From contig OZ242325.1 in assembly GCA_965208245.1 (NCBI GenBank), positions 158,706 through 222,705 on the forward strand: a stretch of 64,000 nt of DNA, given 5' to 3'. Position numbers and translations under genes: made by a program. How positions within the stretch are numbered: position 1 is the first letter of the stretch; each line of letters begins with the position of its first letter. Below the pieces are notes generated by a model, which saw nothing but the letters and a program-made list of their open reading frames with translations, was not told the origin of the DNA and ran no database searches. Source of the stretch: Candidatus Poribacteria bacterium. GTDB lineage: Bacteria > Poribacteria > WGA-4E > WGA-3G. Positions 30,050-64,000 of the stretch are shown in pieces.

Positions 30050-30244
30050 ACATTGACAGTAAGTGTGAATTTCAATTGGGTGTGTATATTTTTATAGAAA
30101 CACATGAGTAAAGAGAGGAATAAGGCTTTTGAGGAGAATATCAAGCCCCAGAGGGGAGAAAGGCTATAGAAAACGTTGATGTAACCAGAGTAAGCATTCA
30201 GAGGGGTGAAAGGTATATCATGTAGGGAATTAAATGCACATGTT

Positions 30245-30572: not shown

Positions 30573-30949
30573 CGTATTGTCTCCTTTTTGATTAAGAGAC
30601 GGTGTTTTTCTGTTTATGCATAAAGTTCCCATCAATAGAGGTGTGAAATTAGCAATCTTCTCTGTCTTTTGCTTACAGAGAACCTGATGGCTGTGAAAAA
30701 AACCTGAAATTACCAAAACCCCTTCCGCGTCTTCCGTGTTCTCCGCGTAATCCGCGATTCTGACAATAAGGGAACAAAGTCTTTACACACCTTTCCTATA
30801 TTTAAGGGTTGCATTTTCTAAGTCAATTCTGATAAAATAAGTATACCAGCATTGCTCGAAATAGCAAACCATTTAATAAGCGAGAATCTGAGTTCCTCCT
30901 ACAACTCAGATTGTATGATTAATTGTACAGTCCACCATAGATACAATCA

Positions 30950-31249
30950 ATGCATATCATTACACGAAAACGTCTAAATGAGTTCGTTGAGAAGAAAGAC
31001 AAGACTGCGAAACCCGCAATTGAACGTTGGTATAGAAAGATGAAGCAAAACACTTTTCGAAATCCAAGTGAACTTCTGCAGATGTTTTCATCCCATGAAG
31101 TAGATAAAGTTGGTAAGTTCACAGTATTTAACATTGGGGGTAAAACAACTTCTCGTCTTATCACGGTTATACATTATAATAGACAAAAAGTCTACATCCG
31201 TGATGTTTTGACCCATAGTGAATATGAGACTGGAAAATGGAAGGAATAA
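30950..31249 (+). CDS. higB: Type II toxin HigB (HigB_toxin / RelE-fold mRNA interferase)
   Basis: Sequence MHIITRKRLNEFVEKK...AIERWYRKMKQNTFRNPSEL...FNIGGKTTSRLITVIHYNRQKVYIRDVLTHSEYE matches the family end to end. Confidence 0.85.
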   Translation: MHIITRKRLNEFVEKKDKTAKPAIERWYRKMKQNTFRNPSELLQMFSSHEVDKVGKFTVFNIGGKTTSRLITVIHYNRQKVYIRDVLTHSEYETGKWKE

Positions 31250-31252
31250 CTC

Positions 31253-31615
31253 ATGCTAAAAGAGAAACAGATTAGCGAGGTTACAGATGAATTACCAGTA
31301 TTTCAAAATCTGAACGTATCTGACCAAAGTACTGTATCTGCTTCACAATCAATTGTGGCTGCCGTAGAAAACTTAATAGAAGTAGTTGGTGTAAATGAAA
31401 CTAAAATCTTTTCACAACTGACTGAACAAGATTATCAAGAACTTGTCCGGATTTTGGATGACCTGATAGATGTGGTAGGAGAGGATGAAAACCACATGTT
31501 AGCTGCAGTTATGGATTTCATTAGTATTCTCATAGAGAATTATGAAAATGAAAACGTACCGGAATTAATAAATGATTCTGTATCTGATTCTATTATGGAT
31601 GTAGAGATACAATGA
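31253..31615 (+). CDS. HigA-like antitoxin N-terminal module without a recognisable HTH domain
   Basis: Starts 3 nt after higB. Has EQDYQELVRILDDLIDVVGEDENHMLAAVMDFISILIENYENENVP, like the pre-HTH part of HigA-type antitoxins. No HTH follows. Confidence 0.45.
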   Translation: MLKEKQISEVTDELPVFQNLNVSDQSTVSASQSIVAAVENLIEVVGVNETKIFSQLTEQDYQELVRILDDLIDVVGEDENHMLAAVMDFISILIENYENENVPELINDSVSDSIMDVEIQ

Positions 31616-31865
31616 TGGTAAGGTTTAATCCATGAATATTATCCTTTCTTTTATTTGTGCTTCTTATTTTTCCATCCGTCTGATTCAGTTTTTCTGCCGT
31701 TTAAAAAATAAAGACTACAAATACAAAAAAGCAGATTCAGCAGATGAACTTGATATGATTATGATGGCGATTTATTTCTTAACGCAGTAATGTAATCCTA
31801 TTGTTGTTTCATACCCAAAAATGTTATAATTGTTCGTACAAATAACACAATAGGAGTGACACACT

Positions 31866-32597
31866 ATGAAACCAAAGATCGCAATTACATGTAAGAGAAG
31901 CAGCGATGTGGAAAACTACATAAAAACTGTTGAGGAATATGGCGGAGAACCAGTTCTGCTTGTATCTCTACAAATTCCAACCCACCAACACAATTCAATA
32001 ATTCCTGAAATCTTGGATGATTATGACGGTATTCTTTTAACAGGGGGTGGCGACATTGATCCAACTCACTATTTTGAAGAGAGACGTTCCGCAACCGCTG
32101 TGAGTAGATCACGTGATGCTTTAGAGATACGTTTGTGTCAAAAAGCTCTGGAAACGGACATCCCAGTTTTTGGTATATGTCGTGGTATCCAAATAATGAG
32201 TGTTGCCATGTGGGGAAACTTATATCAAGATATAGACGATGAACATCCGAAACCCGTGCTCAGACACCCAAAGTTGAATGGAGAGGATGCTCGACATGAA
32301 ATCAAAATCCAACCTGATAGTCTGTTGTATGAAATTGTTGGGAAAAGTGTAGACGAAGTGAATTCAGCACATCATCAAGCAGTTGACGATATAGGTAAAA
32401 ATTTTGTTGTAACTGCTCGTTCATCGGATGGAGTCATAGAAGCAATAGAAAACGAATCTAAACCGTTTGTAATAGGTGTTCAATATCATCCAGAAAGGAT
32501 GATCGCAAATGACGGTTTTCTTGAGCATAGACGAAAACTCTTTAGCGCATTTATCAAAAGTACTAAAAACTGGCAATCAATGAAAAACGGTTCGTAA
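31866..32597 (+). CDS. Gamma-glutamyl-GABA hydrolase-like class I glutamine amidotransferase (peptidase C26)
   Basis: Has LTGGGDIDP, GICRGIQIM (nucleophile Cys) and VQYHPE. Confidence 0.8.
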   Translation: MKPKIAITCKRSSDVENYIKTVEEYGGEPVLLVSLQIPTHQHNSIIPEILDDYDGILLTGGGDIDPTHYFEERRSATAVSRSRDALEIRLCQKALETDIPVFGICRGIQIMSVAMWGNLYQDIDDEHPKPVLRHPKLNGEDARHEIKIQPDSLLYEIVGKSVDEVNSAHHQAVDDIGKNFVVTARSSDGVIEAIENESKPFVIGVQYHPERMIANDGFLEHRRKLFSAFIKSTKNWQSMKNGS

Positions 32598-36250: not shown

Positions 36251-38107
36251 CTACTTAACAACTATCAACCGTCGCGTCTGCTGGAATGACTCTGTCGTCA
36301 ACTGGTAGAAATAAAAACCGCTTGCGACACTTTCACCGTAGGTGTTCTTGCCATCCCAGTAAACAGCACGACCCCGATCTTGATAGTACCCTACCGATTG
36401 GAAACCGAGTGAGAAAGTACGGATAATACTACCTGTTGCGTCATATATCGTGATAGATACGTTGCTGTCTTCTGATAGACGATAGGGTATCCACGTCTCT
36501 GGGTTGAACGGGTTTGGATAATTTTGTAAGAGGTGGCTGTGTTTCGGTGTGCCAATATTCTCAAGGGTGACAGATAGAAACGCGTTTGCCAGATCGATGG
36601 GTGCCACCTGAAAACTGTACTTGTCCGAGACAGTAGAGCCGTCTGTATCAGTGATGGTTACTTCAACTGTATCACCGACCTGTACAACATTTCTGTAACT
36701 AAGGTCAGCTGTGGCAGCGGCGAAGTAATTATCCTGAACCTGTGTTGTCATCACGTTGTTTGTTCGTAAGTTTCTGACTGTTATTTGATACCCGTCATAT
36801 TCTTGCTTACCTGTCAAATGTCCACTGACCACAAATGCCCAGGTTCCCTTGGACGTTACTCCGGATACGGCAGGTGGTGCTGCAGCGGACTCCTCCGTAG
36901 TGTCTGTCCAAGGTGCTCCGACGAAAGCAAAATTGCGAGTTTTTGGGACGTTAACAATATAACCCTGACCGCCTTCAATTGCAAAACCGTCGTCAGGTGC
37001 GTTTGGTGTCCAACCGATGAAACGTTGACTTTCAGCATCAAGTGCAATTACCATAGTTGCTCCCGCCATCCCCACGAGTGATTTTGCAGTCATCGGTTTC
37101 GGTGATGCTAAAGGAACAGAAAGCATGTTTAAACCTTTCGCCAACATAACATTGTAGTAGTTACCAAAATGATCGCTTGCTGCTTTATCAACAGGTATTC
37201 CGACAAAACCGTGTACTCGACCATCCGCTGTGTCATAGAAACCGACGATAGAACCATCCTGATTGACATTTCGGACGACAGTGATAACGCTGCCTGGAAG
37301 CCGCACTTCATGGAGGATGCCACTGGGTAGAAGGATATAAGACCTTAGAAGGTCGTTTACAACTTTGGCTCTGAATCCGATAACACCAGCATCAGTGATG
37401 GTGTTCACAAATAGATATTCAAGGTTCAACATTTCTGGGAGATCTATAGTGCTGAAACTACCATCAGGGTTACGTATGAACCCATGAAACATGCCATCGA
37501 CATCAATGTAACTGCCAACAACAGCACCTGCGGCATTGACAAAGTCCCCATAAGTTGCAACTGCACCAGGGAATGTAATTATCAGATCCCCTGAGAAGGC
37601 GTGGAAGATTCCCGATGCATCAACAATGTTACCGCTCAACACTCCTGTTTCATCACTAATCCCGAAGATGAACGTCTGGACAGCACCTGGAAAATCGTAC
37701 TGTTTTAACTCGCCATTTTCGTCTAACACAACACCGTGGTAGAGTCCATCAGTGCCCTGGTAGTGCCCCGCAGCGACTCCATTATTGCCGAGGGCAAAGA
37801 AATGCGTTTTCTGTGAATCGGGAAAATCGTAGGTTGTAAAAACACCGTCAATTAGTGTAAAGGCAATCTCTTTTCCATTATCAGCACTGCGCGTATAGCC
37901 TGCGTAATCTCCAAAGTCGCTACTTGCTGTCAACGCTAAAAAATCTACACCCGGCAAGTTGACGGTTTCAAAAGTATAATATGGAATGTAGGATTCGGAG
38001 ATCAGAACGGGAACAGGTTGAGGATTTGCTTCTGCGGGGATGTACCACGCAAGACATAAGATAAAACATAATAGGAGAATGGGTTTAGTTAGTATATTGT
38101 GATTCAT
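36251..38107 (-). CDS. Secreted repeat protein (HAF-like G-x-Y-x-D-x-x-G-x-x-HGF repeats) with T9SS/FlgD-Ig-type C-terminal sorting domain
   Basis: Signal peptide MNHNILTKPILLLCFILCLAWYIPAEA. Has repeats such as GSYIDVDGMFHGFIRNPDG. C-terminal LLQNYPNPFNPETWIPY...YWDGKN..GE.VASGFYFYQL. Confidence 0.75.
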   Translation of the reverse strand: MNHNILTKPILLLCFILCLAWYIPAEANPQPVPVLISESYIPYYTFETVNLPGVDFLALTASSDFGDYAGYTRSADNGKEIAFTLIDGVFTTYDFPDSQKTHFFALGNNGVAAGHYQGTDGLYHGVVLDENGELKQYDFPGAVQTFIFGISDETGVLSGNIVDASGIFHAFSGDLIITFPGAVATYGDFVNAAGAVVGSYIDVDGMFHGFIRNPDGSFSTIDLPEMLNLEYLFVNTITDAGVIGFRAKVVNDLLRSYILLPSGILHEVRLPGSVITVVRNVNQDGSIVGFYDTADGRVHGFVGIPVDKAASDHFGNYYNVMLAKGLNMLSVPLASPKPMTAKSLVGMAGATMVIALDAESQRFIGWTPNAPDDGFAIEGGQGYIVNVPKTRNFAFVGAPWTDTTEESAAAPPAVSGVTSKGTWAFVVSGHLTGKQEYDGYQITVRNLRTNNVMTTQVQDNYFAAATADLSYRNVVQVGDTVEVTITDTDGSTVSDKYSFQVAPIDLANAFLSVTLENIGTPKHSHLLQNYPNPFNPETWIPYRLSEDSNVSITIYDATGSIIRTFSLGFQSVGYYQDRGRAVYWDGKNTYGESVASGFYFYQLTTESFQQTRRLIVVK

Positions 38108-38187
38108 AAGTGTCCTTTCTTGTAGATTGAGTTGAATTGCAAAAAATAACATATGTTACTGACTTCTGACAACTGAATACTACTGGA

Positions 38188-50143: not shown

Positions 50144-50290
50144 ACAGACTAAAACAGGGATCCCGCGGATGCGAGACCCCTTGCTTTAGATAGGTTAGTT
50201 CGTAATTCCATATTGGAATACGGAACGGAAGGGATTATGCACGGCAACTTGCAAATATCCCTTTAAATAGAGATAGGTTAGTAAGATTTT

Positions 50291-50328
50291 CCTCAAGAAG
50301 CCACACAAAATGTGGCTTCTTGTTGAGG
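50291..50328 (-). terminator. Strong hairpin downstream of the LTD-protein gene (cctcaagaagccaca-caaaa-tgtggcttcttg(t)tgagg)
   Basis: About 15-bp stem, 33 nt after the stop at 50361. No clear U-tract. Confidence 0.45.
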
Positions 50329-50360
50329 AGATTAGTTAAATTATCCCTGAAATTTAACCC

Positions 50361-53300
50361 TTATTGTGCAGCGTTTTTGATGTCGCCCCACGACGTTGTA
50401 AGTTTTCCTTTCGCTGATATTAAGCCTTTCAACTTGGTTACAGCGAGTTGATTGTGCTGACCTGAGAATGAGATGTCTTCGATCTGATAGTAGTAAATAG
50501 CACCGGGCTTTGCTGTTGTATCAATCCATTTATAGGTGGTACGTTCTGCCGTTGTGCCTTTACCTTGTATCATCTGTTCGTTGACTTGTGTGAATTCACC
50601 GTCGCGGGTTTCGCTACGGAGGATATTGAATCCAGCGTTGTCAAGTTCGGATTCCGTTGTCCATTGGATAGTAACTTTTCCGTTTTCCGATGTTGGACGG
50701 AAGAAGGATAACTCAACGGGTAGTGCTGTGCCGCTGGTATGTAAGGGGGTGCCGAAATCATCACTGCTTCCATACCAGATTTCTTTTGCGGTTGCTAATG
50801 CGGTATCAACAGCATGAACCCATGCAGCCTTCATATTTTTTTCTGCACGTATAAGACTTCCAGATGTACTCATAGGTATCACAGAACCTGTCATATCCCC
50901 TTCCATAGTACGATCAGGGACACCTTTACGCGCCATGCCAGCTTTTCCGAAAACAGTGCCTTGCACACCTCGTGTGCCGCCATCCATGAGACGAATCAAA
51001 GATGTGCGTTTATCATCTGTTGTTAGGGCAGTGGGCCAACGCCAACTGTATGGATCGTCGAGCTCGATACCTTCACGGAGATCAGCTTCTTTCCCATCAA
51101 GGTTACCGATCTCATCAGATACATTTCCAGCACCATCAACAATCTTGATATAGAAACCGCCTGCAGCATTTAACATGTCCTGCCTGCTATTTTTCATATC
51201 CAAAGCTGCTCTGGCACTGTTCGTTCCCCATACACTTGCAACTCTGTGACTTGGGAAGTGACCCGTACCTGAGCTATGCCGTCCAGAGCGAGAAGCGATC
51301 AACACAGTCTGGTTAGGTGGAATGAACTCGATACCCTCAAAATCTTTCAAGTTAATTGTGGCATTGAGTTTACGGTTACTATCTAACCATGAACCGGAGT
51401 TATGGTTTTCAATAATCATACGCCATCCAGCATCTTTGGCACTTTTATCTGCATCACTTCCATCTACTGTAAGGTTAATACCTTTCGTTCTGGATGTGTT
51501 GTGAAGTTCAATCCATTGTGGGTAGCGTCCATTGTCGCTTGTGAGCATCAATTCACTAATGATCAAGCCACCATCATCAATATCTCCAGTTTTACCTTTC
51601 ACGACATCGTTATGGTATCCTGGCGTTCCGGCACCCATGACATCACGGTCATAACCGAGACCGCCTGAGTAGCCGACAATGGCTCCGCCACCTTTACGCC
51701 ATCCGTGTAATGTGCCATTACGTGCCCAGACTTCACCGCTCTTAAATGCATGGGCAGGATCCAGAGATGCATTGTTGTTATTGGAATCACCTGCATTATG
51801 TGCTCGGTAATTATTGCCTGTATGCCCGTTGATGGGCCATGCAAGCGTATTCCAGTAACTGCCGTTTTCAGGTTCCGTTATTTTAGCTGTAACACCAAGC
51901 GTGTTCTTTGTAACTCTTGCAGAACCTGCAACATCGTGCATATGTGTTCGGCTAGTTTTGAATTTATTATCAGCATGGCTTCGCAATATAAGGAAACCAC
52001 CTGCATCCAGTGATGCCGGAATATTCAGAGCTGTGTTATGACTCGCTTTAATATTCAGATATTTATGCTGCCCGGCACCAAGTGTTTGGTTTGCTCTGGC
52101 TTCTCTAATATTCTGTCCTGCAGCAAGACCGGTATCTTCAGGGTCACTATTGACAATTAACAACACTTCACCAGCAGGAATCTTTATATCCCAATTGAAA
52201 TGGATAATGTTCTGTTCATCAGCTTGATCATCCGTACTCGTATTAGTAACCGTTGCGCCGCCAGTGTGATTAAGTCTCCAGCCCTTAAGATTCACCTCAC
52301 CAGTGCTCACATTACGAAATTCAATCCAATCTAAACTATCATCACTACTATGATTAAAGACTTCGTTGATAATAACTTTGTCTTTAGGTGGTGTGTAAGC
52401 AGTAGGACCCGTACGTACTGATGGAAGTCCCTCACGTTCATTTGCTGTACCGGGCGTTCCCTTAAAACCGGGGAAATAGAAACGGTCAGAGGCTTTCCAA
52501 TGTGCAGCATTTGCACCATCGCCATCCTGTTTACTACGATAAATGGAAACAAACGCAGGATCCGCACCGATAATTGCTGGTGTATCACCAGTACTTCGAG
52601 TTGCTGTACCACTACTACCTTTTATAGCTGGATTCCATACATTTTGATGTCCAGCAATATTAGTGATCCTATCAACAACACCAGTTACTTTAGGAGGTGC
52701 TGGGAATGTATCATCAGTAAATATAAATGTAGGATTGGGAACAGGGGTAGTCTTACGATTATAGACTTCAATCCACTGCTGATTTGTATAACCATCTTGT
52801 CCAACACGTGAATTATCAACACCCCACATGATTTCGTTGATAATAACATCAAAATTCTCTGCAGCAGCAGTAGTAACTGCGTCAGCACCCGTGCCTGTAG
52901 TCGTAGTAATAACTAAGTCAATCGTTCCACCACCGACATTGAAGAATTCTTCAAGGTCTGGCATAGCTACATTTGAATTACCGGTAGTTGTTGTAGGGTC
53001 AATTGCAGCTAAATTAGCCTCACCTAGAGTGGATGGTAACACTGGACGAGCTGTTTCAACAGGAAGTGTAGCATCACCAGATCTCAAATAAACACGATAC
53101 GCGTAACCAGCAAGATGATTGGTTGCAAGGACAAGTGAAGTTGCACCTGCCAAATCAGTACCAAGACCTGAATCAAGACCAGTGCTATAACCTTTTAGGG
53201 TTAACCCTGCTGGAACAGTAACGTCCGAATCTGCATCTTCAAGTGTGAGTGTAACGGTTTTACCACTACTAGTAATTTTAGCAGTCGTAGCACCAGCAGC

Positions 53301-53594
53301 ACCACTAACAAAACTTGCTTTCAGTACATCACGATCACCGCCATCGTCATCAGTCGCACCGATCTGTCCATCAGTAGCTGTAAAATCAGAAAGGACTGGT
53401 ACAGGATCCGGATCCTCGGAATATGTAAACGTTATAACGACTTTCCCTTTAACCACAGGAGGTCCTGCAGCATAAGTGGTTGACTCAATATACGCAGTCA
53501 CTGTCACCTGTGCCATTGCGGTTGGCGCGACGACAAGCGCAGCAACGAGTAATATAGAAAAAATAGAAAATGTCAATCTATTTGACAAGTACAT
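50361..53594 (-). CDS. Large secreted protein with three lamin-tail-domain (LTD)-like modules and a C-terminal LPVELSFF... beta-sandwich domain
   Basis: Signal peptide ...VVAPTAMA. Has LTD-type motifs VIINEIMWG...QWIEVYN, VIINEVFNH...DWIEFRN and LIISELMLT...QWIELHN. C-terminal LPVELSFFRPTSENGKVTIQWTTESELDNAGFNILRSE. Confidence 0.7.
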   Translation of the reverse strand: MYLSNRLTFSIFSILLVAALVVAPTAMAQVTVTAYIESTTYAAGPPVVKGKVVITFTYSEDPDPVPVLSDFTATDGQIGATDDDGGDRDVLKASFVSGAAGATTAKITSSGKTVTLTLEDADSDVTVPAGLTLKGYSTGLDSGLGTDLAGATSLVLATNHLAGYAYRVYLRSGDATLPVETARPVLPSTLGEANLAAIDPTTTTGNSNVAMPDLEEFFNVGGGTIDLVITTTTGTGADAVTTAAAENFDVIINEIMWGVDNSRVGQDGYTNQQWIEVYNRKTTPVPNPTFIFTDDTFPAPPKVTGVVDRITNIAGHQNVWNPAIKGSSGTATRSTGDTPAIIGADPAFVSIYRSKQDGDGANAAHWKASDRFYFPGFKGTPGTANEREGLPSVRTGPTAYTPPKDKVIINEVFNHSSDDSLDWIEFRNVSTGEVNLKGWRLNHTGGATVTNTSTDDQADEQNIIHFNWDIKIPAGEVLLIVNSDPEDTGLAAGQNIREARANQTLGAGQHKYLNIKASHNTALNIPASLDAGGFLILRSHADNKFKTSRTHMHDVAGSARVTKNTLGVTAKITEPENGSYWNTLAWPINGHTGNNYRAHNAGDSNNNNASLDPAHAFKSGEVWARNGTLHGWRKGGGAIVGYSGGLGYDRDVMGAGTPGYHNDVVKGKTGDIDDGGLIISELMLTSDNGRYPQWIELHNTSRTKGINLTVDGSDADKSAKDAGWRMIIENHNSGSWLDSNRKLNATINLKDFEGIEFIPPNQTVLIASRSGRHSSGTGHFPSHRVASVWGTNSARAALDMKNSRQDMLNAAGGFYIKIVDGAGNVSDEIGNLDGKEADLREGIELDDPYSWRWPTALTTDDKRTSLIRLMDGGTRGVQGTVFGKAGMARKGVPDRTMEGDMTGSVIPMSTSGSLIRAEKNMKAAWVHAVDTALATAKEIWYGSSDDFGTPLHTSGTALPVELSFFRPTSENGKVTIQWTTESELDNAGFNILRSETRDGEFTQVNEQMIQGKGTTAERTTYKWIDTTAKPGAIYYYQIEDISFSGQHNQLAVTKLKGLISAKGKLTTSWGDIKNAAQ

Positions 53595-54157
53595 TGTAAT
53601 CTCCTTAAAAAAATTAAGTTCAAAAAAATCATGTTAAGGATTCAGGGAATGAAATCCTGTTAACCTATTCTCAAATATCAACTATTGATATCTGTTTACG
53701 TCAAAATGTTCCTAAAACTTTCATATTCTGTGGTGTTCAATAATCATCTTGACACACCACATTTGCCAAAAAATATTATTTAGTTAATTATACGTCAATA
53801 ACTTAAATTAAGCAAATTAATTTTCATATTAACTTATCATCAAACAGTAAATAAGTCCAAAAATCTATAAAATTTGTAAGATGTATCGGGCACTTCTGTT
53901 CATCTACACTTCTGTTCATCTATTTGTGCTAAATTGCCATTTTTGTAACATAATAGATAGTGCGCCATACATAGTTATGTAAAATATAATAACGTATAAA
54001 ATTAAATTAAGCAACAACTTTTTTCATTTTTTGCCTTAATTTATGAAAACATTCTATAGTATTATACACCCTAATATTTGGGATGTCAAGGGAAAAATAC
54101 ACCGCTTTCAAGGAATAGAAGATTGGAAGAGGGGAAGGTTCTATCTACGGTTTTGGG

Positions 54158-55135
54158 TTAGCTGTGTGTTTGTAAACGTTGCAATTGTTCTCGGAGTCGT
54201 GCGACTTCAGTTTCAGCGTTCTCAGCACGGGCTGCTTCCTGTTCAGCAAGTGTTTCAGCGTTCTCAGCACGGGCTGCTTCCTGTTCAGCAAGTGTTTCAG
54301 CGTTCTCAGCACGGGCTGCTTCCTGTTCAGCACGGGATGCCTCCTGTTCAGCACGGGATGCCTCCTGTTCAGCAAGTGTTTCAGCACTCTCAGCACGGGC
54401 TGCTTCCTGTTCAGCACGGGCTGCCTCTTGTTCAGCACGGGCTGCCTCTTGTTCAGCAAGTGTTTCAGCACTCTCAGCACGGGCTGCTTCCTGTTCAGCG
54501 CGTGTTGCTTCCTGTTCAGCACGGGCTTCGGCTGCTTCGGTTGGGGTCTGCAGCCATGCACCCGCAACAGGATCATAGAAACCTAAACCTTCATCATCCA
54601 CATGGAAATCTAAACTGAGAACATCAGAATGTAGACCCCCATCTGCATGCTCAGATATCGGAACATAAACACCACCAACTAATGTCCAACCCATCAGTTG
54701 AGATGCCAAAAATAAACCTTCCGCATCATATAAAAAGTAATCTTGGATACCTAAAGAGGTATAGAGGTCCATTTTTTTCCCTAAATCTTCAGCATAAGTG
54801 GTTTTGCTACTGAACTCCATCACAAAATCAGGCAGTTTACCTTCCACCCAAACAAGATACGTATTCCGCCTTTTTTTATCTAATCCGAAAGAGACTAACA
54901 CATCCGGGGCAACGACTCGGTGCGGATCACCCTCCACATAATACATCAGTATATCACCAGAAACATAAACATCCGGTTGTTGTGTGTAATGTGCCTTAAG
55001 TGTATCTATTGTGCAATTGAGTATATCTCTGTGCAGATCGCTCGCAGCCATGGGTTTACCATCCGTATCAGGGTAATATATCGGTATGTCTGTTGGAGCA
55101 GAAGATATTTTCTGCTTATCTGTATAGGTTGTCAT
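54158..55135 (-). CDS. Uma2 (DUF820) family PD-(D/E)XK endonuclease, copy 1, 325 aa, 14 tail heptads
   Basis: Has VVAPDVLVSFG, LPDFVMEFSSKTT and KMDLYTSLGIQDYFLYD. RBS is AAGGAG. The tail ends NAETEVARLREQLQRLQTHS. Confidence 0.88.
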   Translation of the reverse strand: MTTYTDKQKISSAPTDIPIYYPDTDGKPMAASDLHRDILNCTIDTLKAHYTQQPDVYVSGDILMYYVEGDPHRVVAPDVLVSFGLDKKRRNTYLVWVEGKLPDFVMEFSSKTTYAEDLGKKMDLYTSLGIQDYFLYDAEGLFLASQLMGWTLVGGVYVPISEHADGGLHSDVLSLDFHVDDEGLGFYDPVAGAWLQTPTEAAEARAEQEATRAEQEAARAESAETLAEQEAARAEQEAARAEQEAARAESAETLAEQEASRAEQEASRAEQEAARAENAETLAEQEAARAENAETLAEQEAARAENAETEVARLREQLQRLQTHS

Positions 55136-55205
55136 CGGTGTTTCTCCTTTTAGTCAAATACATGAAAGTATTTTAATACTTGAACCGTGGAGACTGCTTT
55201 TGCTA

Positions 55206-55235
55206 ATTATAACTGAGAATCGATAAAAATAACAA
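55206..55235 (-). promoter_or_regulatory. Candidate sigma70-type promoter of an array unit (TTGTTA-N18-TATAAT on the minus strand), repeated in every full-length spacer
   Basis: Read directly, ~70 nt upstream of the ATG. Not tested. In the two short spacers the -35 part is deleted. Confidence 0.3.
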
Positions 55236-55493
55236 GCACTTTAAAGTCCTATGCTAAAAATATGATTTTATCAGTCCGCAGGTCGGGTAGAGGGTAGCGT
55301 CATTAAAATATTAACTGGCGACACGATCAAACTTCTGTCGGGGGTCGCTACACTCAAACCAAACTACAAAGTCTACTATTAGCCCTACACAAAAACTGAC
55401 AATCTCTTAAAACTGAAGAACCCTGCCGACCTACGAAGAAAACTTGACAAGGTATTAGCTTACAAAAACTTTACACACCCTTATGGGTTTGGG

Positions 55494-56387
55494 TTAGCTA
55501 TGTGTTTGTAAACGTTGCAATTGTTCTCGGAGTCGTGCGACTTCAGTTTCAGCCGCCTCAGCACGGGATGCTTCCTGTTCAGCACGGGCTGCTTCTTGTT
55601 CAGCAAGTGTTTCAGCACTCTCAGCACGGGCTGCCTCCTGTTCAGCACGGGCTGCCTCCTGTTCAGCACGGGCTGCTTCCTGTTCAGCACGGGCTGCCTC
55701 TTGTTCAGCAAGTGTTTCAGCGTTCTCAGCACGGGCTGCTTCCTGTTCAGCGCGTGTTGCTTCCTGTTCAGCACGGGCTTCGGCTGCTTCGGTTGGGGTC
55801 TGCAGCCATGCACCCGCAACAGGATCATAGAAACCTAAACCTTCATCATCCACATGGAAATCTAAACTGAGAACATCAGAATGTAGACCCCCATCTGCAT
55901 GCTCAGATATCGGAACATAAACACCACCAACTAATGTCCAACCCATCAGTTGAGATGCCAAAAATAAACCTTCCGCATCATATAAAAAGTAATCTTGGAT
56001 ACCTAAAGAGGTATAGAGGTCCATTTTTTTCCCTAAATCTTCAGCATAAGTGGTTTTGCTACTGAACTCCATCACAAAGTCAGGCAGTTTACCTTCCACC
56101 CAAACAAGATACGTATTCCGCCTTTTTTTATCTAATCCGAAAGAGACTAACACATCCGGGGCAACGACTCGGCGCGGATCACCCTCCACATAATACATCA
56201 GTATATCACCAGAAACATAAACATCCGGTTGTTGTGCGTAATGTGCCTTAAGTGTATCTATTGTGCAATTGAGTATATCTCTGTGCAGATCGCTTGCAGC
56301 CATGGGTTTACCATCCGTATCAGGGTAATATATCGGTATGTCTGTTGGAGCAGAAGATATTTTCTGCTTATCTGTATAGGTTGTCAT
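55494..56387 (-). CDS. Uma2 family endonuclease, copy 2, 297 aa, 10 tail heptads
   Basis: Same core as copy 1. Confidence 0.88.
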   Translation of the reverse strand: MTTYTDKQKISSAPTDIPIYYPDTDGKPMAASDLHRDILNCTIDTLKAHYAQQPDVYVSGDILMYYVEGDPRRVVAPDVLVSFGLDKKRRNTYLVWVEGKLPDFVMEFSSKTTYAEDLGKKMDLYTSLGIQDYFLYDAEGLFLASQLMGWTLVGGVYVPISEHADGGLHSDVLSLDFHVDDEGLGFYDPVAGAWLQTPTEAAEARAEQEATRAEQEAARAENAETLAEQEAARAEQEAARAEQEAARAEQEAARAESAETLAEQEAARAEQEASRAEAAETEVARLREQLQRLQTHS

Positions 56388-56745
56388 CGGTATTTCTCCT
56401 TTTAGTCAAATACATGAAAGTATTTTAATACTTGAACCGTGGAGACTGCTTTTGCTAATTATAACTGAGAATCGATAAAAATAACAAGCACTTTAAAGTC
56501 CTATGCTAAAAATATGATTTTATCAGTCCGTAGGTCGGGTAGAGGGTAGCGTCATTAAAATATTAACTAGCGACACGATCAAACTTCTGTCGGGGGTCGC
56601 TTCGCTCAAACCAAACTACAAAGTCCACTATTAGCCCTACACAAAAACTGACAATCTCTTAAAACTGAAGAACCCTGCCGACCTACGAAGAAAACTTGAC
56701 AAGGTATTAGCTTACAAAAACTTTACACACCCTTATGGGTTTGGG

Positions 56746-57618
56746 TTAGCTATGTGTTTGTAAACGTTGCAATTGTTCTCGGAGTCGTGCGACTTCAGTT
56801 TCAGCCGCCTCAGCACGGGATGCTTCCTGTTCGGCACGGGCTGCTTCTTGTTCAGCAAGTGTTTCAGCACTCTCAGCACGGGCTGCTTCCTGTTCAGCAC
56901 GGGCTGCCTCTTGTTCAGCACGGGCTGCCTCTTGTTCAGCAAGTGTTTCAGCACTCTCAGCACGTGTTGCTTCCTGTTTTGCAAGTGTTTCAGCGTTCTC
57001 AGCGCGTGCTTCGGCTGCTTCGGTTGGGGTCTGCAGCCATGCACCCGCAACAGGATCATAGAAACCTAAACCTTCATCATCCACATGGAAATCTAAACTG
57101 AGAACATCAGAATGTAGACCCCCATCTGCATGCTCAGATATCGGAACATAAACACCACCAACTAATGTCCAACCCATCAGTTGAGATGCCAAAAATAAAC
57201 CTTCCGCATCATATAAAAAGTAATCTTGGATACCTAAAGAGGTATAGAGGTCCATTTTTTTCCCTAAATCTTCAGCATAAGTGGTTTTGCTACTGAACTC
57301 CATCACAAAATCAGGCAGTTTACCTTCCACCCAAACAAGATACGTATTCCGCCTTTTTTTATCTAATCCGAAAGAGACTAACACATCCGGGGCAACGACT
57401 CGGCGCGGATCACCCTCCACATAATACATCAGTATATCACCAGAAACATAAACATCCGGTTGTTGTGTGTAATGTGCCTTAAGTGTATCTATTGTGCAAT
57501 TGAGTATATCTCTGTGCAGATCGCTTGCAGCCATGGGTTTACCATCCGTATCAGGGTAATATATCGGTATGTCTGTTGGAGCAGAAGATATTTTCTGCTT
57601 ATCTGTATAGGTTGTCAT
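56746..57618 (-). CDS. Uma2 family endonuclease, copy 3, 290 aa, 9 tail heptads
   Basis: Same core as copy 1. Confidence 0.88.
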   Translation of the reverse strand: MTTYTDKQKISSAPTDIPIYYPDTDGKPMAASDLHRDILNCTIDTLKAHYTQQPDVYVSGDILMYYVEGDPRRVVAPDVLVSFGLDKKRRNTYLVWVEGKLPDFVMEFSSKTTYAEDLGKKMDLYTSLGIQDYFLYDAEGLFLASQLMGWTLVGGVYVPISEHADGGLHSDVLSLDFHVDDEGLGFYDPVAGAWLQTPTEAAEARAENAETLAKQEATRAESAETLAEQEAARAEQEAARAEQEAARAESAETLAEQEAARAEQEASRAEAAETEVARLREQLQRLQTHS

Positions 57619-57975
57619 CGGTGTTTCTCCTTTTAGTCAAATACATGAAAGTATTTTAATACTTGAACCGTGGAGACTGCTTTTGCTAATTATAACTGAG
57701 AATCGATAAAAATAACAAGCACTTTAAAGTCCTATGCTAAAAATATGATTTTATCAGTCCGCAGGTCGGGTAGAGGGTAGCGTCATTAAAATATTAACTA
57801 GCGACACGATCAAACTTCTGTCGGGGGTCGCTACACTCAAACCAAACTACAAAGTCCACTATTAGCCCTACACAAAAACTGACAATCTCTTAAAACTGAA
57901 GAACCCTGCCGAACTACGAAGAAAACTTGACAAGGTATTAGTTACAAAAACTTTACACACCCTTATGGGTTTGGG

Positions 57976-58974
57976 TTAGCTATGTGTTTGTAAACGTTGC
58001 AATTGTTCTCGGAGTCGTGCGACTTCAGTTTCAGCCGCCTCAGCACGGGATGCTTCCTGTTCGGCACGGGCTGCTTCTTGTTCAGCAAGTGTTTCAGCGT
58101 TCTCAGCACGGGCTGCCTCCTGTTCAGCACGGGCTGCTTCTTGTTCAGCAAGTGTTTCAGCGTTCTCAGCACGGGATGCTTCCTGTTCAGCAAGTGTTTC
58201 AGCGTTCTCAGCACGGGCTGCCTCTTGTTCAGCACGGGCTGCCTCTTGTTCAGCACGGGCTGCCTCTTGTTCAGCACGGGCTGCCTCTTGTTCAGCAAGT
58301 GTTTCAGCGTTCTCAGCACGGGATGCTTCCTGTTTTGCAAGTGTTTCAGCGTTCTCAGCACGTGCTTCGGCTGCTTCGGTTGGGGTCTGCAGCCATGCAC
58401 CCGCAACAGGATCATAGAAACCTAAACCTTCATCATCCACATGGAAATCTAAACTGAGAACATCAGAATGTAAACCACCATCTGCATGCTCAGATACAGG
58501 AACATAAACACCATCAACTAATGTCCAACCCATCAGTTGAGATGCCAAAAATAAACCTTCCGCATCATATAAAAAGTAATCTTGGATACCTAAAGAAGCA
58601 TAGAGGTCCATTTTTTTCCCTAAATCTTCAGCATAAGTGGTTTTGCTACTGAACTCCATCACAAAATCAGGCAGTTTACCTTCCACCCAAACAAGATACG
58701 TATTCCGCCTTTTTTTATCTAATCCGAAAGAGACTAACACATCCGGGGCAACGACTCGGTGCGGGACACCTTTCACGTAATACATCAGTATATCACCAGA
58801 AACATAAACATCCGGTCGTTGTGCGTAATGTGCCTTAAGTGTTTCTAGTGTGCAATTGAGTATATCTCTGTGCAGGTCGCTCGCAGCCATGGGTTTACCA
58901 TCCGTATCAGGGTAATATATCGGTATGTCTGTTGGAACAGAAGATATTTTCTGCTTAGCTGTATAGGTTGTCAT
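57976..58974 (-). CDS. Uma2 family endonuclease, copy 4, 332 aa, 15 tail heptads
   Basis: Same core, variant haplotype (LETL, AQR, KGVPH, ASLG, DGVYVPVS). Confidence 0.88.
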   Translation of the reverse strand: MTTYTAKQKISSVPTDIPIYYPDTDGKPMAASDLHRDILNCTLETLKAHYAQRPDVYVSGDILMYYVKGVPHRVVAPDVLVSFGLDKKRRNTYLVWVEGKLPDFVMEFSSKTTYAEDLGKKMDLYASLGIQDYFLYDAEGLFLASQLMGWTLVDGVYVPVSEHADGGLHSDVLSLDFHVDDEGLGFYDPVAGAWLQTPTEAAEARAENAETLAKQEASRAENAETLAEQEAARAEQEAARAEQEAARAEQEAARAENAETLAEQEASRAENAETLAEQEAARAEQEAARAENAETLAEQEAARAEQEASRAEAAETEVARLREQLQRLQTHS

Positions 58975-59332
58975 CGGTGTTTCTCCTTTTAGTCAAATAC
59001 ATGAAAGTATTTTAATACTTGAACCGTGGAGACTGCTTTTGCTAATTATAACTGAGAATCGATAAAAATAACAAGCACTTTAAAGTCCTATGCTAAAAAT
59101 ATGATTTTATCAGTCCGTAGGTCCGGTAGAGGGTAGCGTCATTAAAATATTAACTGGCGACACGATCAAACTTCTGTCGGGGGTCGCTACACTCAAACCA
59201 AACTACAAAGTCCACTATTAATCCTACACAAAAACTGACAATCTCTTAAAACTGAAGAACCCTGCCGAACTACGAAGAAAACTTGACAAGGTATTAGCTT
59301 ACAAAAACTTTACACACCCTTATGGGTTTGGG

Positions 59333-60247
59333 TTAGCTATGTGTTTGTAAACGTTGCAATTGTTCTCGGAGTCGTGCGACTTCAGTTTCAGCCGCCTCAG
59401 CACGGGATGCTTCCTGTTCAGCACGGGCTGCTTCTTGTTCAGCAAGTGTTTCAGCACTCTCAGCACGGGATGCTTCCTGTTCAGCAAGTGTTTCAGCGTT
59501 CTCAGCACGGGCTGCCTCTTGTTCAGCACGGGCTGCCTCTTGTTCAGCACGGGCTGCTTCTTGTTCAGCAAGTGTTTCAGCGTTCTCAGCACGTGTTGCT
59601 TCCTGTTTTGCAAGTGTTTCAGCGTTCTCAGCGCGTGCTTCGGCTGCTTCGGTTGGGGTCTGCAGCCATGCACCCGCAACAGGATCATAGAAACCTAAAC
59701 CTTCATCATCCACATGGAAATCTAAACTGAGAACATCAGAATGTAGACCCCCATCTGCATGCTCAGATATCGGAACATAAACACCACCAACTAATGTCCA
59801 ACCCATCAGTTGAGATGCCAAAAATAAACCTTCCGCATCATATAAAAAGTAATCTTGGATACCTAAAGAGGTATAGAGGTCCATTTTTTTCCCTAAATCT
59901 TCAGCATAAGTGGTTTTGCTACTGAACTCCATCACAAAATCAGGCAGTTTACCTTCCACCCAAACAAGATACGTATTCCGCCTTTTTTTATCTAATCCGA
60001 AAGAGACTAACACATCCGGGGCAACGACTCGGTGCGGATCACCCTCCACATAATACATCAGTATATCACCAGAAACATAAACATCCGGTCGTTGTGTGTA
60101 ATGTGCCTTAAGTGTATCTATTGTGCAATTGAGTATATCTCTGTGCAGATCGCTTGCAGCCATGGGTTTACCATCCGTATCAGGGTAATATATCGGTATG
60201 TCTGTTGGAGCAGAAGATATTTTCTGCTTATCTGTATAGGTTGTCAT
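59333..60247 (-). CDS. Uma2 family endonuclease, copy 5, 304 aa, 11 tail heptads
   Basis: Same core as copy 1. Confidence 0.88.
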   Translation of the reverse strand: MTTYTDKQKISSAPTDIPIYYPDTDGKPMAASDLHRDILNCTIDTLKAHYTQRPDVYVSGDILMYYVEGDPHRVVAPDVLVSFGLDKKRRNTYLVWVEGKLPDFVMEFSSKTTYAEDLGKKMDLYTSLGIQDYFLYDAEGLFLASQLMGWTLVGGVYVPISEHADGGLHSDVLSLDFHVDDEGLGFYDPVAGAWLQTPTEAAEARAENAETLAKQEATRAENAETLAEQEAARAEQEAARAEQEAARAENAETLAEQEASRAESAETLAEQEAARAEQEASRAEAAETEVARLREQLQRLQTHS

Positions 60248-60502
60248 CGGTGTTTCTCCTTTTAGTCAAATACATGAAAGTATTCTAATACTTGAACCGT
60301 GGAGACTGCTTTTGCTAATTATACTGGCGACACGATCAAACTTCTGTCGGGGGTCGCTACACTCAAACCAAACTACAAAGTCCGCTATTAGCCCTACACA
60401 AAAACTGACAATCTCTTAAAACTGAAGAACCCTGCCGAACTACGAAGAAAACTTGACAAGGTATTAGCTTACAAAAACTTTACACATCCTTATGGGTTTG
60501 GG

Positions 60503-61438
60503 TTAGCTATGTGTTTGTAAACGTTGCAATTGTTCTCGGAGTCGTGCGACTTCAGTTTCAGCCGCCTCAGCACGGGATGCCTCCTGTTCAGCACGGGCTG
60601 CTTCTTGTTCAGCAAGTGTTTCAGCACTCTCAGCACGGGCTGCCTCTTGTTCAGCACGGGCTGCCTCTTGTTCAGCAAGTGTTTCAGCACTCTCAGCACG
60701 GGCTGCCTCTTGTTCAGCACGGGCTGCCTCTTGTTCAGCAAGTGTTTCAGCGTTCTCAGCGCGTGTTGCTTCCTGTTCAGCGCGTGTTGCTTCCTGTTCA
60801 GCGCGTGTTGCTTCCTGTTCAGCGCGTGCTTCGGCTGCTTCGGTTGGGGTCTGCAGCCATGCACCCGCAACAGGATCATAGAAACCTAAACCTTCATCAT
60901 CCACATGGAAATCTAAACTGAGAACATCAGAATGTAAACCACCATCTGCATGCTCAGATACAGGAACATAAACACCATCAACTAATGTCCAACCCATCAG
61001 TTGAGATGCCAAAAATAAACCTTCCGCATCATATAAAAAGTAATCTTGGATACCTAAAGAAGCATAGAGGTCCATTTTTTTCCCTAAATCTTCAGCATAA
61101 GTGGTTTTGCTACTGAACTCCATCACAAAATCAGGCAGTTTACCTTCCACCCAAACAAGATACGTATTCCGCCTTTTTTTATCTAATCCGAAAGAGACTA
61201 ACACATCCGGGGCAACGACTCGGTGCGGATCACCCTCCACATAATACATCAGTATATCACCAGAAACATAAACATCCGGTCGTTGTGTGTAATGTGCCTT
61301 AAGTGTTTCTAGTGTGCAATTGAGTATATCTCTGTGCAGATCGCTTGCAGCCATAGGTTTACCATCCGTATCAGGGTAATATATCGGTATGTCTGTTGGA
61401 GCAGAAGATATTTTCTGCTTATCTGTATAGGTTGTCAT
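60503..61438 (-). CDS. Uma2 family endonuclease, copy 6, 311 aa, 12 tail heptads
   Basis: Same core as copy 1. Confidence 0.88.
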   Translation of the reverse strand: MTTYTDKQKISSAPTDIPIYYPDTDGKPMAASDLHRDILNCTLETLKAHYTQRPDVYVSGDILMYYVEGDPHRVVAPDVLVSFGLDKKRRNTYLVWVEGKLPDFVMEFSSKTTYAEDLGKKMDLYASLGIQDYFLYDAEGLFLASQLMGWTLVDGVYVPVSEHADGGLHSDVLSLDFHVDDEGLGFYDPVAGAWLQTPTEAAEARAEQEATRAEQEATRAEQEATRAENAETLAEQEAARAEQEAARAESAETLAEQEAARAEQEAARAESAETLAEQEAARAEQEASRAEAAETEVARLREQLQRLQTHS

Positions 61439-61692
61439 CGGTGTTTCTCCTTTTAGTCAAATACATGAAAGTATTTTAATACTTGAACCGTGGAGACTGC
61501 TTTTGCTAATTATACTGGCGACACGATCAAACTTCTGTCGGGGGTCGCTACACTCAAACCAAACTACAAAGTCCACTATTAGCCCTACACAAAAACTGAC
61601 AATCTCTTAAAACTGAAGAACCCTGCCGACCTACGAAGAAAACTTGACAAGGTATTAGCTTACAAAAACTTTACACATCTTATGGTTTTGGG

Positions 61693-62649
61693 TTAGCTAT
61701 GTGTTTGTAAACGTTGCAATTGTTCTCGGAGTCGTGCGACTTCAGTTTCAGCCGCCTCAGCACGGGATGCCTCCTGTTCAGCACGGGCTGCTTCTTGTTC
61801 AGCAAGTGTTTCAGCACTCTCAGCACGGGCTGCCTCTTGTTCAGCACGGGCTGCCTCTTGTTCAGCAAGTGTTTCAGCACTCTCAGCACGGGCTGCCTCT
61901 TGTTCAGCACGGGCTGCCTCTTGTTCAGCACGGGCTGCCTCTTGTTCAGCAAGTGTTTCAGCGTTCTCAGCACGTGTTGCTTCCTGTTCAGCGCGTGTTG
62001 CTTCCTGTTTTGCAAGTGTTTCAGCGTTCTCAGCACGTGCTTCGGCTGCTTCGGTTGGGGTCTGCAGCCATGCACCCGCAACAGGATCATAGAAACCTAA
62101 ACCTTCATCATCCACATGGAAATCTAAACTGAGAACATCAGAATGTAAACCACCATCTGCATGCTCAGATACAGGAACATAAACACCATCAACTAATGTC
62201 CAACCCATCAGTTGAGATGCCAAAAATAAACCTTCCGCATCATATAAAAAGTAATCTTGGATACCTAAAGAGGTATAGAGGTCCATTTTTTTCCCTAAAT
62301 CTTCAGCATAAGTGGTTTTGCTACTGAACTCCATCACAAAATCAGGCAGTTTACCTTCCACCCAAACAAGATACGTATTCCGCCTTTTTTTATCTAATCC
62401 GAAAGAGACTAACACATCCGGGGCAACGACTCGGTGCGGATCACCCTCCACATAATACATCAGTATATCACCAGAAACATAAACATCCGGTCGTTGTGTG
62501 TAATGTGCCTTAAGTGTATCTATTGTGCAATTGAGTATATCTCTGTGCAGATCGCTTGCAGCCATGGGTTTACCATCCGTATCAGGGTAATATATCGGTA
62601 TGTCTGTTGGAGCAGAAGATATTTTCTGCTTATCTGTATAGGTTGTCAT
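61693..62649 (-). CDS. Uma2 family endonuclease, copy 7, 318 aa, 13 tail heptads
   Basis: Same core as copy 1. Confidence 0.88.
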   Translation of the reverse strand: MTTYTDKQKISSAPTDIPIYYPDTDGKPMAASDLHRDILNCTIDTLKAHYTQRPDVYVSGDILMYYVEGDPHRVVAPDVLVSFGLDKKRRNTYLVWVEGKLPDFVMEFSSKTTYAEDLGKKMDLYTSLGIQDYFLYDAEGLFLASQLMGWTLVDGVYVPVSEHADGGLHSDVLSLDFHVDDEGLGFYDPVAGAWLQTPTEAAEARAENAETLAKQEATRAEQEATRAENAETLAEQEAARAEQEAARAEQEAARAESAETLAEQEAARAEQEAARAESAETLAEQEAARAEQEASRAEAAETEVARLREQLQRLQTHS

Positions 62650-63007
62650 CGGTGTTTCTCCTTTTAGTCAAATACATGAAAGTATTTTAATACTTGAACC
62701 GTGGAGACTGCTTTTGCTAATTATAACTGAGAATCGATAAAAATAACAAGCACTTTAAAGTCCTATGCTAAAAATATGATTTTATCAGTCCGCAGGTCGG
62801 GTAGAGGGTAGCGTCATTAAAATATTAACTGGCGACACGATCAAACTTCTGTCGGGGGTCGCTACACTCAAACCAAACTACAAAGTCCACTATTAGCCCT
62901 ACACAAAAACTGACAATCTCTTAAAACTGAAGAACCCTGCCGAACTACGAAGAAAACTTGACAAGGTATTAGCTTACAAAAACTTTACACATCCTTATGG
63001 TTTTGGG

Positions 63008-64000
63008 TTAGCTATGTGTTTGTAAACGTTGCAATTGTTCTCGGAGTCGTGCGACTTCAGTTTCAGCCGCCTCAGCACGGGATGCTTCCTGTTCGGCACG
63101 GGCTGCTTCTTGTTCAGCAAGTGTTTCAGCACTCTCAGCACGGGATGCCTCCTGTTCAGCACGGGATGCCTCTTGTTCAGCAAGTGTTTCAGCACTCTCA
63201 GCACGGGATGCCTCCTGTTCAGCAAGTGTTTCAGCGTTCTCAGCACGGGCTGCCTCTTGTTCAGCACGGGCTGCCTCTTGTTCAGCACGGGCTGCCTCTT
63301 GTTCAGCACGGGCTGCCTCTTGTTCAGCAAGTGTTTCAGCGTTCTCAGCACGGGATGCTTCCTGTTTTGCAAGTGTTTCAGCGTTCTCAGCGCGTGCTTC
63401 GGCTGCTTCGGTTGGGGTCTGCAGCCATGCACCCGCAACAGGATCATAGAAACCTAAACCTTCATCATCCACATGGAAATCTAAACTGAGAACATCAGAA
63501 TGTAAACCACCATCTGCATGCTCAGATACAGGAACATAAACACCATCAACTAATGTCCAACCCATCAGTTGAGATGCCAAAAATAAACCTTCCGCATCAT
63601 ATAAAAAGTAATCTTGGATACCTAAAGAAGCATAGAGGTCCATTTTTTTCCCTAAATCTTCAGCATAAGTGGTTTTGCTACTGAACTCCATCACAAAATC
63701 AGGCAGTTTACCTTCCACCCAAACAAGATACGTATTCCGCCTTTTTTTATCTAATCCGAAAGAGACTAACACATCCGGGGCAACGACTCGGTGCGGGACA
63801 CCTTTCACGTAATACATCAGTATATCACCAGAAACATAAACATCCGGTCGTTGTGCGTAATGTGCCTTAAGTGTTTCTAGTGTACAATTGAGTATATCTC
63901 TGTGCAGATCGCTCGCAGCCATGGGTTTACCATCCGTATCAGGGTAATATATCGGTATGTCTGTTGGAACAGAAAATATTTTCTGCTTATCTGTATAGGT
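63008..64000 (-). CDS. Uma2 family endonuclease, copy 8, 5' end cut by the window (about 2 codons missing), 15 tail heptads
   Basis: The reverse complement of the last bases reads TYTDKQKIFSVPTDIPIYYPDTDGKPMAAS, so the CDS continues to the edge. The ORF track shows only the internal-Met part. Confidence 0.85.
   Translation of the reverse strand, partial: TYTDKQKIFSVPTDIPIYYPDTDGKPMAASDLHRDILNCTLETLKAHYAQRPDVYVSGDILMYYVKGVPHRVVAPDVLVSFGLDKKRRNTYLVWVEGKLPDFVMEFSSKTTYAEDLGKKMDLYASLGIQDYFLYDAEGLFLASQLMGWTLVDGVYVPVSEHADGGLHSDVLSLDFHVDDEGLGFYDPVAGAWLQTPTEAAEARAENAETLAKQEASRAENAETLAEQEAARAEQEAARAEQEAARAEQEAARAENAETLAEQEASRAESAETLAEQEASRAEQEASRAESAETLAEQEAARAEQEASRAEAAETEVARLREQLQRLQTHS

Follow-up and report, generated by a model that had tools for sequence, protein, structure and literature searches.

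Uma2 proteins (DUF820, COG4636) form one of the largest bacterial families without a demonstrated function, and for about 20 years they have been suspected of being selfish or toxin-like nucleases. Massive proliferation of COG4636, to more than 2% of the genes of Gloeobacter, has been described and selfish spread proposed (Feder & Bujnicki 2005, PMC551604); the same study called tandem duplications rare, while listing many pairs and one run of four, the latter in Crocosphaera watsonii. Thermus thermophilus has 15 copies (Feder & Bujnicki 2005, PMC551604; Makarova et al. 2009, PMC2701414). Thermosynechococcus strains carry 15–17 uma2 genes, and among these genomes that of Thermosynechococcus sp. 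TA-1 has RPN/YhgA-like PD-(D/E)XK genes in three tandem arrays, with 11, 3 and 3 copies (PMC9403480). Uma2 genes also occur inside type III CRISPR loci of Microcystis. The window analysed here is a 64,000-nucleotide stretch of a Candidatus Poribacteria bacterium (assembly GCA_965208245.1, contig OZ242325.1, positions 158,706 to 222,705), and it ends in a head-to-tail array of at least eight Uma2 genes. Poribacteria are a phylum of sponge symbionts. We favour, with a probability of about 0.6, a lineage-specific in-place tandem amplification of one ancestral single-copy, solo, possibly defensive or selfish Uma2 nuclease gene. The way in which the array formed and is maintained has good support; its biochemical role, whether as a defence nuclease, a selfish toxin or a scaffold, we only infer.

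The array occupies positions 54146–64000 and consists of eight minus-strand genes in units of 1.2–1.36 kb (Table 1). A preliminary description, made from the sequence and its open reading frames (ORFs), had reported at least eight intact, near-identical tandem genes. Eight genes do lie head-to-tail, but only seven are complete (290–332 aa); the eighth is cut by the window end and lacks just its first two codons. The end of a 332-aa database protein (P0015) is identical to the copy 8 sequence. The first ~207 residues were said to be almost identical, and the head-coding first 621–630 nt indeed differ by only 2–29 nt between copies (95–99.7% identity). None of the differences is a frameshift or a stop, and all eight copies are open. 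Homology between units ends near the stop codon of copy 1, as had been noted, but at ~12 nt past it (54146) and not at ~20. Past this boundary, homology is instead to the sequence that lies downstream of the single-copy orthologs on two other contigs, L004 and L009, and copy 1 is the copy that sits at the ancestral 3′ junction. No further Uma2 copy was found in positions 1–54000 of the window. The array is real and well delimited. Within the repeat tracts, long ORFs that run in another frame or on the plus strand (e.g., 54043–54618) were rejected as genes; they are by-products of the stop-free 21-bp repeats.

All close homologs come from Candidatus Poribacteria metagenome-assembled genomes (MAGs), and the neighbours in the window fit this phylum (a 962-aa WD40 protein, TPR, DnaJ and sulfotransferase proteins, a 1077-aa lamin-tail-domain (LTD) protein and a PorV homolog). 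The MAG contigs L004 and L009 are syntenic with window positions 50149–54290; they have the LTD, TPR, BatD, CopD and DAO genes in common with the window, together with the 3′ flank of copy 1, and the conserved order of the locus is Uma2–LTD–TPR–BatD–CopD–DAO. Each of the two contigs has one Uma2 gene, of 241 and 248 aa with 3–4 heptads, although by their names both appear to be short-read assemblies, which could collapse an array, and L009 starts 267 bp upstream of the gene. Since the syntenic locus holds a single gene, the array arose in place by amplification, and the 3–4 heptads of these genes imply that the stalks lengthened in the lineage of the array.

The expansion extends beyond the window. 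For the source contig (4,252,156 bp), the protein database lists 24 clusters with 41 member sequences, and at least 36 distinct paralogs were recovered, counted per contig and not by position; these numbers fit the suggestion that the array is still running at the window end. The heads of the recovered paralogs are 85–100% identical (median 94%). Their lengths occupy each 7-aa step from 227 to 360 aa, and the number of heptads ranges from ~0 to 19 genome-wide, compared with 9–15 in the array copies. A relative with a 5.9-Mb genome has ~5 clusters. Among 75 loci from other genomes, nearly all are single-copy, three have adjacent tandem pairs and one is an independent four-copy array on another Poribacteria chromosome (L052, OZ244616.1, 8235–11684). 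The L052 genes are also head-to-tail, with intergenic gaps of just ~65–70 bp and their own heptads (TAQEATR/ADTAEAR) in variable number. A metagenome scan added seven loci and no new arrays. The earlier view of Uma2 genes as dispersed single genes agrees with the published rarity of tandem duplication, but not with the pairs, the run of four and the massive proliferation recorded in PMC551604. Variation in heptad number is family-wide, with length equal to 3 mod 7 in 78 of 96 homologs from other genomes. Tails are longer in the source genome (median 118 aa versus 72.5 aa in other genomes).

The copies bear direct evidence of purifying selection on their head domains. The ratio of nonsynonymous to synonymous substitution rates (dN/dS) between copies is 0.07–0.38, with dS up to 0.10. 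Fifteen of the 28 segregating head changes are synonymous (13 nonsynonymous), whereas only 22% of sites are synonymous (binomial P=3e-4). Selection on the array had previously been argued from the contrast between intact copies and decayed surroundings. That contrast fails, as positions 1–54 kb are mostly intact, and dN/dS and the synonymous excess take its place. Two head haplotypes are present, one in copies 1, 2, 3 and 5 and the other in copies 4 and 8, with mosaics of the two in copies 6 and 7. All four gametes occur in 58 of 231 informative site pairs, and spacer divergence is below the synonymous-site divergence of the most distant copies. The four-gamete pairs, taken with spacers that are 97–99.6% identical, indicate that the copies exchange sequence, probably by ongoing unequal crossing-over or gene conversion.

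The head domain comprises the N-terminal ~205 residues. Against the Pfam Uma2 profile (PF05685, gathering cut-off 27 bits), it scores 47.7 and 49.7 bits (E 1.6e-12 and 3.8e-13). The Uma2 core motifs quoted in the preliminary description are present, and its assignment of the family to Uma2/PD-(D/E)XK agrees with the profile search and with the structural matches. The copies contain the Uma2/COG4636 active-site residues in the order H35...PD78...E107-X-X...K121. The active site of COG4636 is a PD-EXX-K variant, formed in all3650 by H43, D83, E111 and K127 (Feder & Bujnicki 2005, PMC551604); the four array residues map to these positions, with spacing that differs by 2–3 residues. Across a family alignment of 33 sequences, H35, D78, E107 and K121 never vary, and their codons show no variation among the eight copies. 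D78 and E107 are also the same in each of the 34 paralogs from the source contig whose register could be established. The best PDB sequence matches of the head are the Uma2-type structures 6okh and 9y1l. Foldseek against the PDB gave Uma2-type entries (9y1l and 6okh) as its top four matches, with a probability of 1.00 but at modest structural scores (see below), and also listed 1wdj (TT1808). No NCBIfam model matched. By sequence, the array proteins are assigned to Uma2/COG4636.

The differences in length between copies (290–332 aa) come wholly from the C-terminal third, which is encoded by 9–15 in-frame 21-bp repeats. The preliminary description was silent on this repeat stalk and on the source of the length differences, as it was on the 104-bp deletion in two of the spacers. 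The repeat tract begins after ...WLQTPTEAAEAR and is built from the 7-aa units AEQEA(A/S/T)R, AE(N/S)AETL and AKQEA(S/T)R. It is followed by a conserved tail, AE(A/N)AETEVARLREQLQRLQTHS, and the protein ends in a short amphipathic, zipper-like cap, EVARLREQLQRL. Only ~20 distinct 21-mers are found among the 107 repeat units, and seven different heptad counts among the eight copies. For copy 1, AlphaFold2 (33-sequence alignment) places residues 198–323 in one unbroken helix of ~126 residues and ~19 nm, with a predicted local distance difference test (pLDDT) score of 89–98 across residues 211–290. The helical rod is predicted to make up over one third of each protein. A canonical coiled coil was rejected for the repeat heptads: every candidate a/d register consists of Ala, Glu or Arg. 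On a by-eye reading only the last two heptads, those of the cap, show a leucine-zipper pattern. We read the repeat heptads as resembling a single-α-helix or (EAAAR)n-type rod more than a classical coiled coil. A phase-variable contingency locus was also rejected, as the 21-bp unit is always in frame and the eight copies and all retrieved paralogs are open. A homolog from another assembly (P0041) has a C-terminus, ...TGSKHELNRKQHELRQPKRKSHNSENN, that matches the alternative heptad-tract frame of the shadow ORFs in the window; it is a naturally frameshifted or mis-sequenced family member. On contig L004, a distant Uma2 paralog (5852–6670, minus strand), 31% identical to the head and separated by 3.3 kb from the syntenic ortholog, has an E/Q/K-rich helical tail of different composition, ...QLHEEEKQLREEEQQLREIAEIKAEEQAEKIREQAAELERLRQQLGKQ. 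As this paralog has a tail of its own, helical tails seem to be common to several Uma2 lineages in Poribacteria.

The spacers between units measure, in order, 358, 358, 357, 358, 255, 254 and 358 bp, the range of 254–358 bp given previously, and differ pairwise by 0.4–3.1%. The two short-type spacers adjoin copies 5 and 6 upstream; they have lost the -35-like hexamer but keep TATAAT, the leader and the Shine–Dalgarno (SD) sequence. The intervals between units are free of terminator-like sites, which would permit read-through from one unit to the next, and copies 5 and 6 may rely on it for their transcription. The terminator-like matches that were found are inside coding sequences and recur only through repetition of the unit. 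The ribosome-binding site AAGGAG claimed for each copy precedes the ATG of every complete copy, within the sequence GACTAAAAGGAGAAA(C/T)ACCG immediately 5′ of the ATG. Each long spacer contains a promoter-like TTGTTA-18-TATAAT (the first at 55235–55206), and a TATAATTAAC-like box and the leader TTTTCACGCATCTTATGGAAAAGGAG are contained in the 75–115 nt that precede the ATG. The upstream block is 79–90% identical before dispersed Poribacteria orthologs (L002, L005, L007, L008, L019, L066 and others), which suggests that the gene spreads with its own control region. The syntenic orthologs on L004 and L009 have just ~14–23 nt in common with it upstream of the ATG. Possible explanations of the block are an operator to which a protein binds or merely a promoter that was duplicated along with the gene. 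RNAalifold detected no consensus RNA structure in the leader despite its clear sequence conservation.

The preliminary description had also proposed that the array acts as a unit; an SD and a promoter-like site accompany every copy, and no partner gene was found. ORF clustering revealed no recurrent neighbour within ~4 kb in the 75 loci; the clusters obtained consist of shadow ORFs on the antisense strand and of families that Poribacteria carry in abundance in any case. The spacers contain no meaningful ORF (chance ORFs of 21–28 aa only). A type II toxin–antitoxin module was rejected on these two grounds. A restriction–modification system was rejected as well, since no methyltransferase is present among the scanned window ORFs or the recurrent neighbours of related loci. 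With regard to an RNA antitoxin (type I/III), the spacers have no Rfam match and a fold z-score of -1.55, and the leader lacks a consensus structure, as described above. The array gene is, as far as its gene neighbourhood tells, a solo unit with neither an antitoxin nor a methyltransferase gene.

In the mechanism that we propose for amplification in place, the number of units would change by unequal homologous recombination between them, while slippage or unequal exchange within the 21-bp repeat tracts would alter the number of heptads and so produce the ladder of paralogs of 227–360 aa. The protein would act on nucleic acids as a Mg-dependent nuclease and would need no partner gene. Its stalk and cap would mediate self-association or would space the head from whatever the cap binds. 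By amplification, a defence-type or 'solo toxin'/selfish nuclease would reach a higher dosage, a proposal already made for Uma2 in cyanobacteria. Several observations weigh against parts of this account. The Foldseek matches have E values of ~1e-3 and template modelling (TM) scores of just 0.39–0.47; these modest scores reflect a poor prediction of the model core (pLDDT <50 at residues 62–75 and 84–99 of the AlphaFold2 head). The literature searched contains no report of nuclease activity or biochemical characterisation of any Uma2 protein. The array does not lie in a defence-island context in the window, where the neighbours are metabolic, transport and repeat-protein genes, and searches of phages and of IMG/VR turned up no relatives. 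Coiled-coil self-association of the stalk is a guess, with repeats that lack a hydrophobic a/d core. The analysis covered the array as assembled sequence.

Selfish proliferation without benefit to the host is a tentative alternative, doubtful on the present evidence. The gene would be addictive, or would provoke breaks that are repaired by duplication, and purifying selection would act on the element and not on the host; dN/dS below 1 cannot separate selection at the level of the element from host benefit. Selfish spread is what was proposed for COG4636, the family that accounts for more than 2% of Gloeobacter genes (Feder & Bujnicki, PMC551604), and Makarova et al. (PMC2701414) call Uma2 a likely solo toxin. 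The lack of a partner gene, the promoter/leader block that travels with the gene to many loci and genomes and the independent recurrence of expansions all agree with this. However, the array grew at its ancestral locus and not by insertion, and the single unit boundary that was examined showed no obvious transposase, target-site duplications or terminal repeats. Viral contigs and phages yielded no relatives, and plasmids only 13 matches, none in Poribacteria; these tblastn matches are distant, cyanobacterial and other, and all are annotated 'Uma2 family endonuclease'. A non-catalytic role, in which the head binds nucleic acid, the helix is a scaffold and amplification supplies bulk protein, would suit a protein of which more than one third is helical rod. 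The possibility that Uma2 proteins bind DNA was considered in an early paper (PMC1274311), and PD-(D/E)XK folds without nuclease function are known (PMC551604). Simple binding would not require the strict conservation of H, D, E and K in all 33 family members and of D78 and E107 in every placeable same-contig paralog, and we consider a non-catalytic role quite improbable.

The graded stalk lengths could themselves be what is selected, the array supplying a 'ruler' series that sets nuclease heads apart from a shared anchor, or from one another, by different lengths and widens the target range. The occupancy of every 7-aa step, the seven heptad counts among eight copies, the longer tails in the source genome and the family-wide variation in heptad number are all as expected for such functional diversification. 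In-frame 21-bp slippage would yield the same ladder neutrally given dozens of copies, the ~20 distinct 21-mers fit recent slippage better than old selected length classes, and no anchor or partner is known; we regard this explanation as improbable. Its boldest form, to which we also give little credence, sees the array and the other contig paralogs as a diversified nuclease battery in which slippage deliberately makes a ladder of rigid stalks (~5–25 nm). If true, identical Uma2 heads spaced in graded steps from one shared C-terminal anchor or partner would constitute a previously undescribed kind of system, a within-cell 'ruler' series for attack on foreign DNA in the phage-rich sponge habitat. 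An assembly artefact, in which a one- or two-copy locus or strain variants were expanded or concatenated by the assembler, has to be considered for tandem 1.2-kb units of 95–99.7% identity, which are hard to assemble. It is very unlikely, as the copies are individually distinct (2–29 substitutions per 630 nt, different heptad strings and a 104-bp indel), their differences are biased to synonymous sites with no frameshift or stop, unlike read errors, and a separate genome has the four-copy array L052. The source is moreover a single 4.25-Mb contig, a size typical of long-read MAGs, and was presumably assembled from long reads.

The surroundings of the array had been described as littered with frameshifted and truncated genes, which is not the case. 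ORFs of at least 100 aa cover 86% of 1–54 kb, and nearly all have near full-length Pfam matches. The one clearly split gene is panB (ketopantoate hydroxymethyltransferase; 10023–10867, minus strand), with one piece (ORF 10559–10867) matching Pfam profile positions 2–100 and the other (ORF 10023–10343) positions 180–258. A 1.2-kb segment (11757–12913) upstream of an intact sucD (10879–11751) has no recognisable gene, and sucC appears to be missing or decayed. The split panB and this gene-free segment are the only clear signs of decay found in 1–54 kb. The downstream neighbour of the array is the gene of the 1077-aa LTD protein (50361–53594, minus strand). The protein has an N-terminal signal-like segment, and its C-terminus, by eye, resembles the Pfam-detected sorting domain of a 633-aa protein encoded at 36251–38152. 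A perfect TTGACA-17-TATAAT lies at 54061–54089 (minus strand), 467 bp upstream of the LTD gene start. Between the LTD gene and the array, the AT-rich intergenic sequence contains a perfect 16-bp direct duplication (CACTTCTGTTCATCTA twice, 53891–53922). Elsewhere in the window, positions 28906–29850 (plus strand) encode a 314-aa protein with DUF7669 and a weak NucS_C-like endonuclease match; the ~2 kb that follow (29850–31866) contain just two 120-aa ORFs without a family match. The region 28906–31866 could be a small foreign or decayed island.

Table 1. Coordinates of the array genes, spacers and associated elements in the window
Feature	Position	Strand	Remarks
Proximal array boundary	54146..54157	-	Unit homology stops ~12 nt past copy 1 stop
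Copy 1	54158..55135	-	325 aa; Uma2 head residues 1-205; 14 heptads 54227-54520
Copy 1 tail	54158-54226	-	Conserved, 22 aa
Conserved upstream block	55136..55250	-	Repeated per unit; SD AAGGAG 8 nt before ATG, A/U-rich leader, TATAAT
Long-type spacer, 358 bp	55136..55493	-	No ORF, Rfam match or significant RNA fold
Copy 2	55494..56387	-	297 aa; 10 heptads 55563-55772
Copy 3	56746..57618	-	290 aa; 9 heptads 56815-57003
Copy 4	57976..58974	-	332 aa; 15 heptads 58045-58359; head haplotype 'B'
Copy 5	59333..60247	-	304 aa; 11 heptads 59402-59632
Copy 6	60503..61438	-	311 aa; 12 heptads 60572-60823; head a mosaic of two haplotypes
Copy 7	61693..62649	-	318 aa; 13 heptads 61762-62034; head a mosaic of two haplotypes
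Copy 8	63008..>64000	-	15 heptads 63077-63391; head haplotype 'B'
Further long-type spacers	56388-56745, 57619-57975, 58975-59332, 62650-63007	-	Same type as 55136..55493
Short-type spacers	60248..60502 (255 bp), 61439-61692 (254 bp)	-	104-bp deletion between CAGTTA microhomologies

The locus by itself does not reveal the substrate or role of Uma2. It shows that the family has also exploded in an uncultivated phylum of sponge symbionts, that such an expansion can proceed by in-place tandem amplification with exchange and not only by scattered insertion, and that the copies are kept under purifying selection while the length of the helical stalk varies freely. The array provides a natural series of near-identical proteins that is useful for probing the role of the tail, and a marker locus for strain variation in Poribacteria. 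In the literature searched we found nothing that links Poribacteria with Uma2, DUF820 or COG4636.

Comparison with the nearest described systems places the array as follows. The four models of the PADLOC phage-defence candidate PDC-S03 all match the head, weakly (19–28 bits, E 3e-7 to 2e-4; the best at E 2.8e-7 and 28 bits), which means that Uma2-like single genes have already been nominated as defence candidates; the neighbourhood of the array is not a defence island. We know of no validation of PDC-S03, and it is not mentioned in the literature searched. For the stalk, the nearest counterparts are single-α-helix (ER/K) domains and the alanine-based rigid helical linkers (EAAAR/EAAAK)n. The AEQEAAR repeats are predicted to resemble them in forming an Ala-rich helix with i/i+3–i+4 Glu–Arg pairs, whereas the interspersed AENAETL units and the leucine-rich cap may instead allow coiled-coil pairing; the likeness is one of resemblance only. 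A Uma2 member on a Pseudanabaena plasmid (34% identity) has a short helical RADQEKARADRLTEKLRKLG tail in the same style as the array. The RPN/YhgA arrays are, like the Uma2 array, lineage-specific tandem expansions of genes assigned to PD-(D/E)XK but belong to a different family, and no internal repeat-length polymorphism is reported for them. The Thermosynechococcus uma2 copies, unlike those in Poribacteria, are not described as arrays. The array genes share the Pfam family, the H...PD...EXX...K variant, the solo status and the lineage-specific proliferation with the cyanobacterial and Thermus COG4636 genes. They differ from these in their phylum, in numbering at least eight copies compared with the described run of four, in having heads that are 95–99.7% identical with signs of exchange and a conserved spacer where the other paralogs have diverged, and in a C-terminal helix expanded to 9–15 heptads, encoded by 21-bp repeats and forming a length ladder. 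For Uma2, proliferation, a solo gene organisation, short tandem runs and a helix at the C-terminus had all been known; new in the array are its phylum, its size, the near-identity of its copies, exchange combined with purifying selection and the repeat-encoded ladder of stalks.

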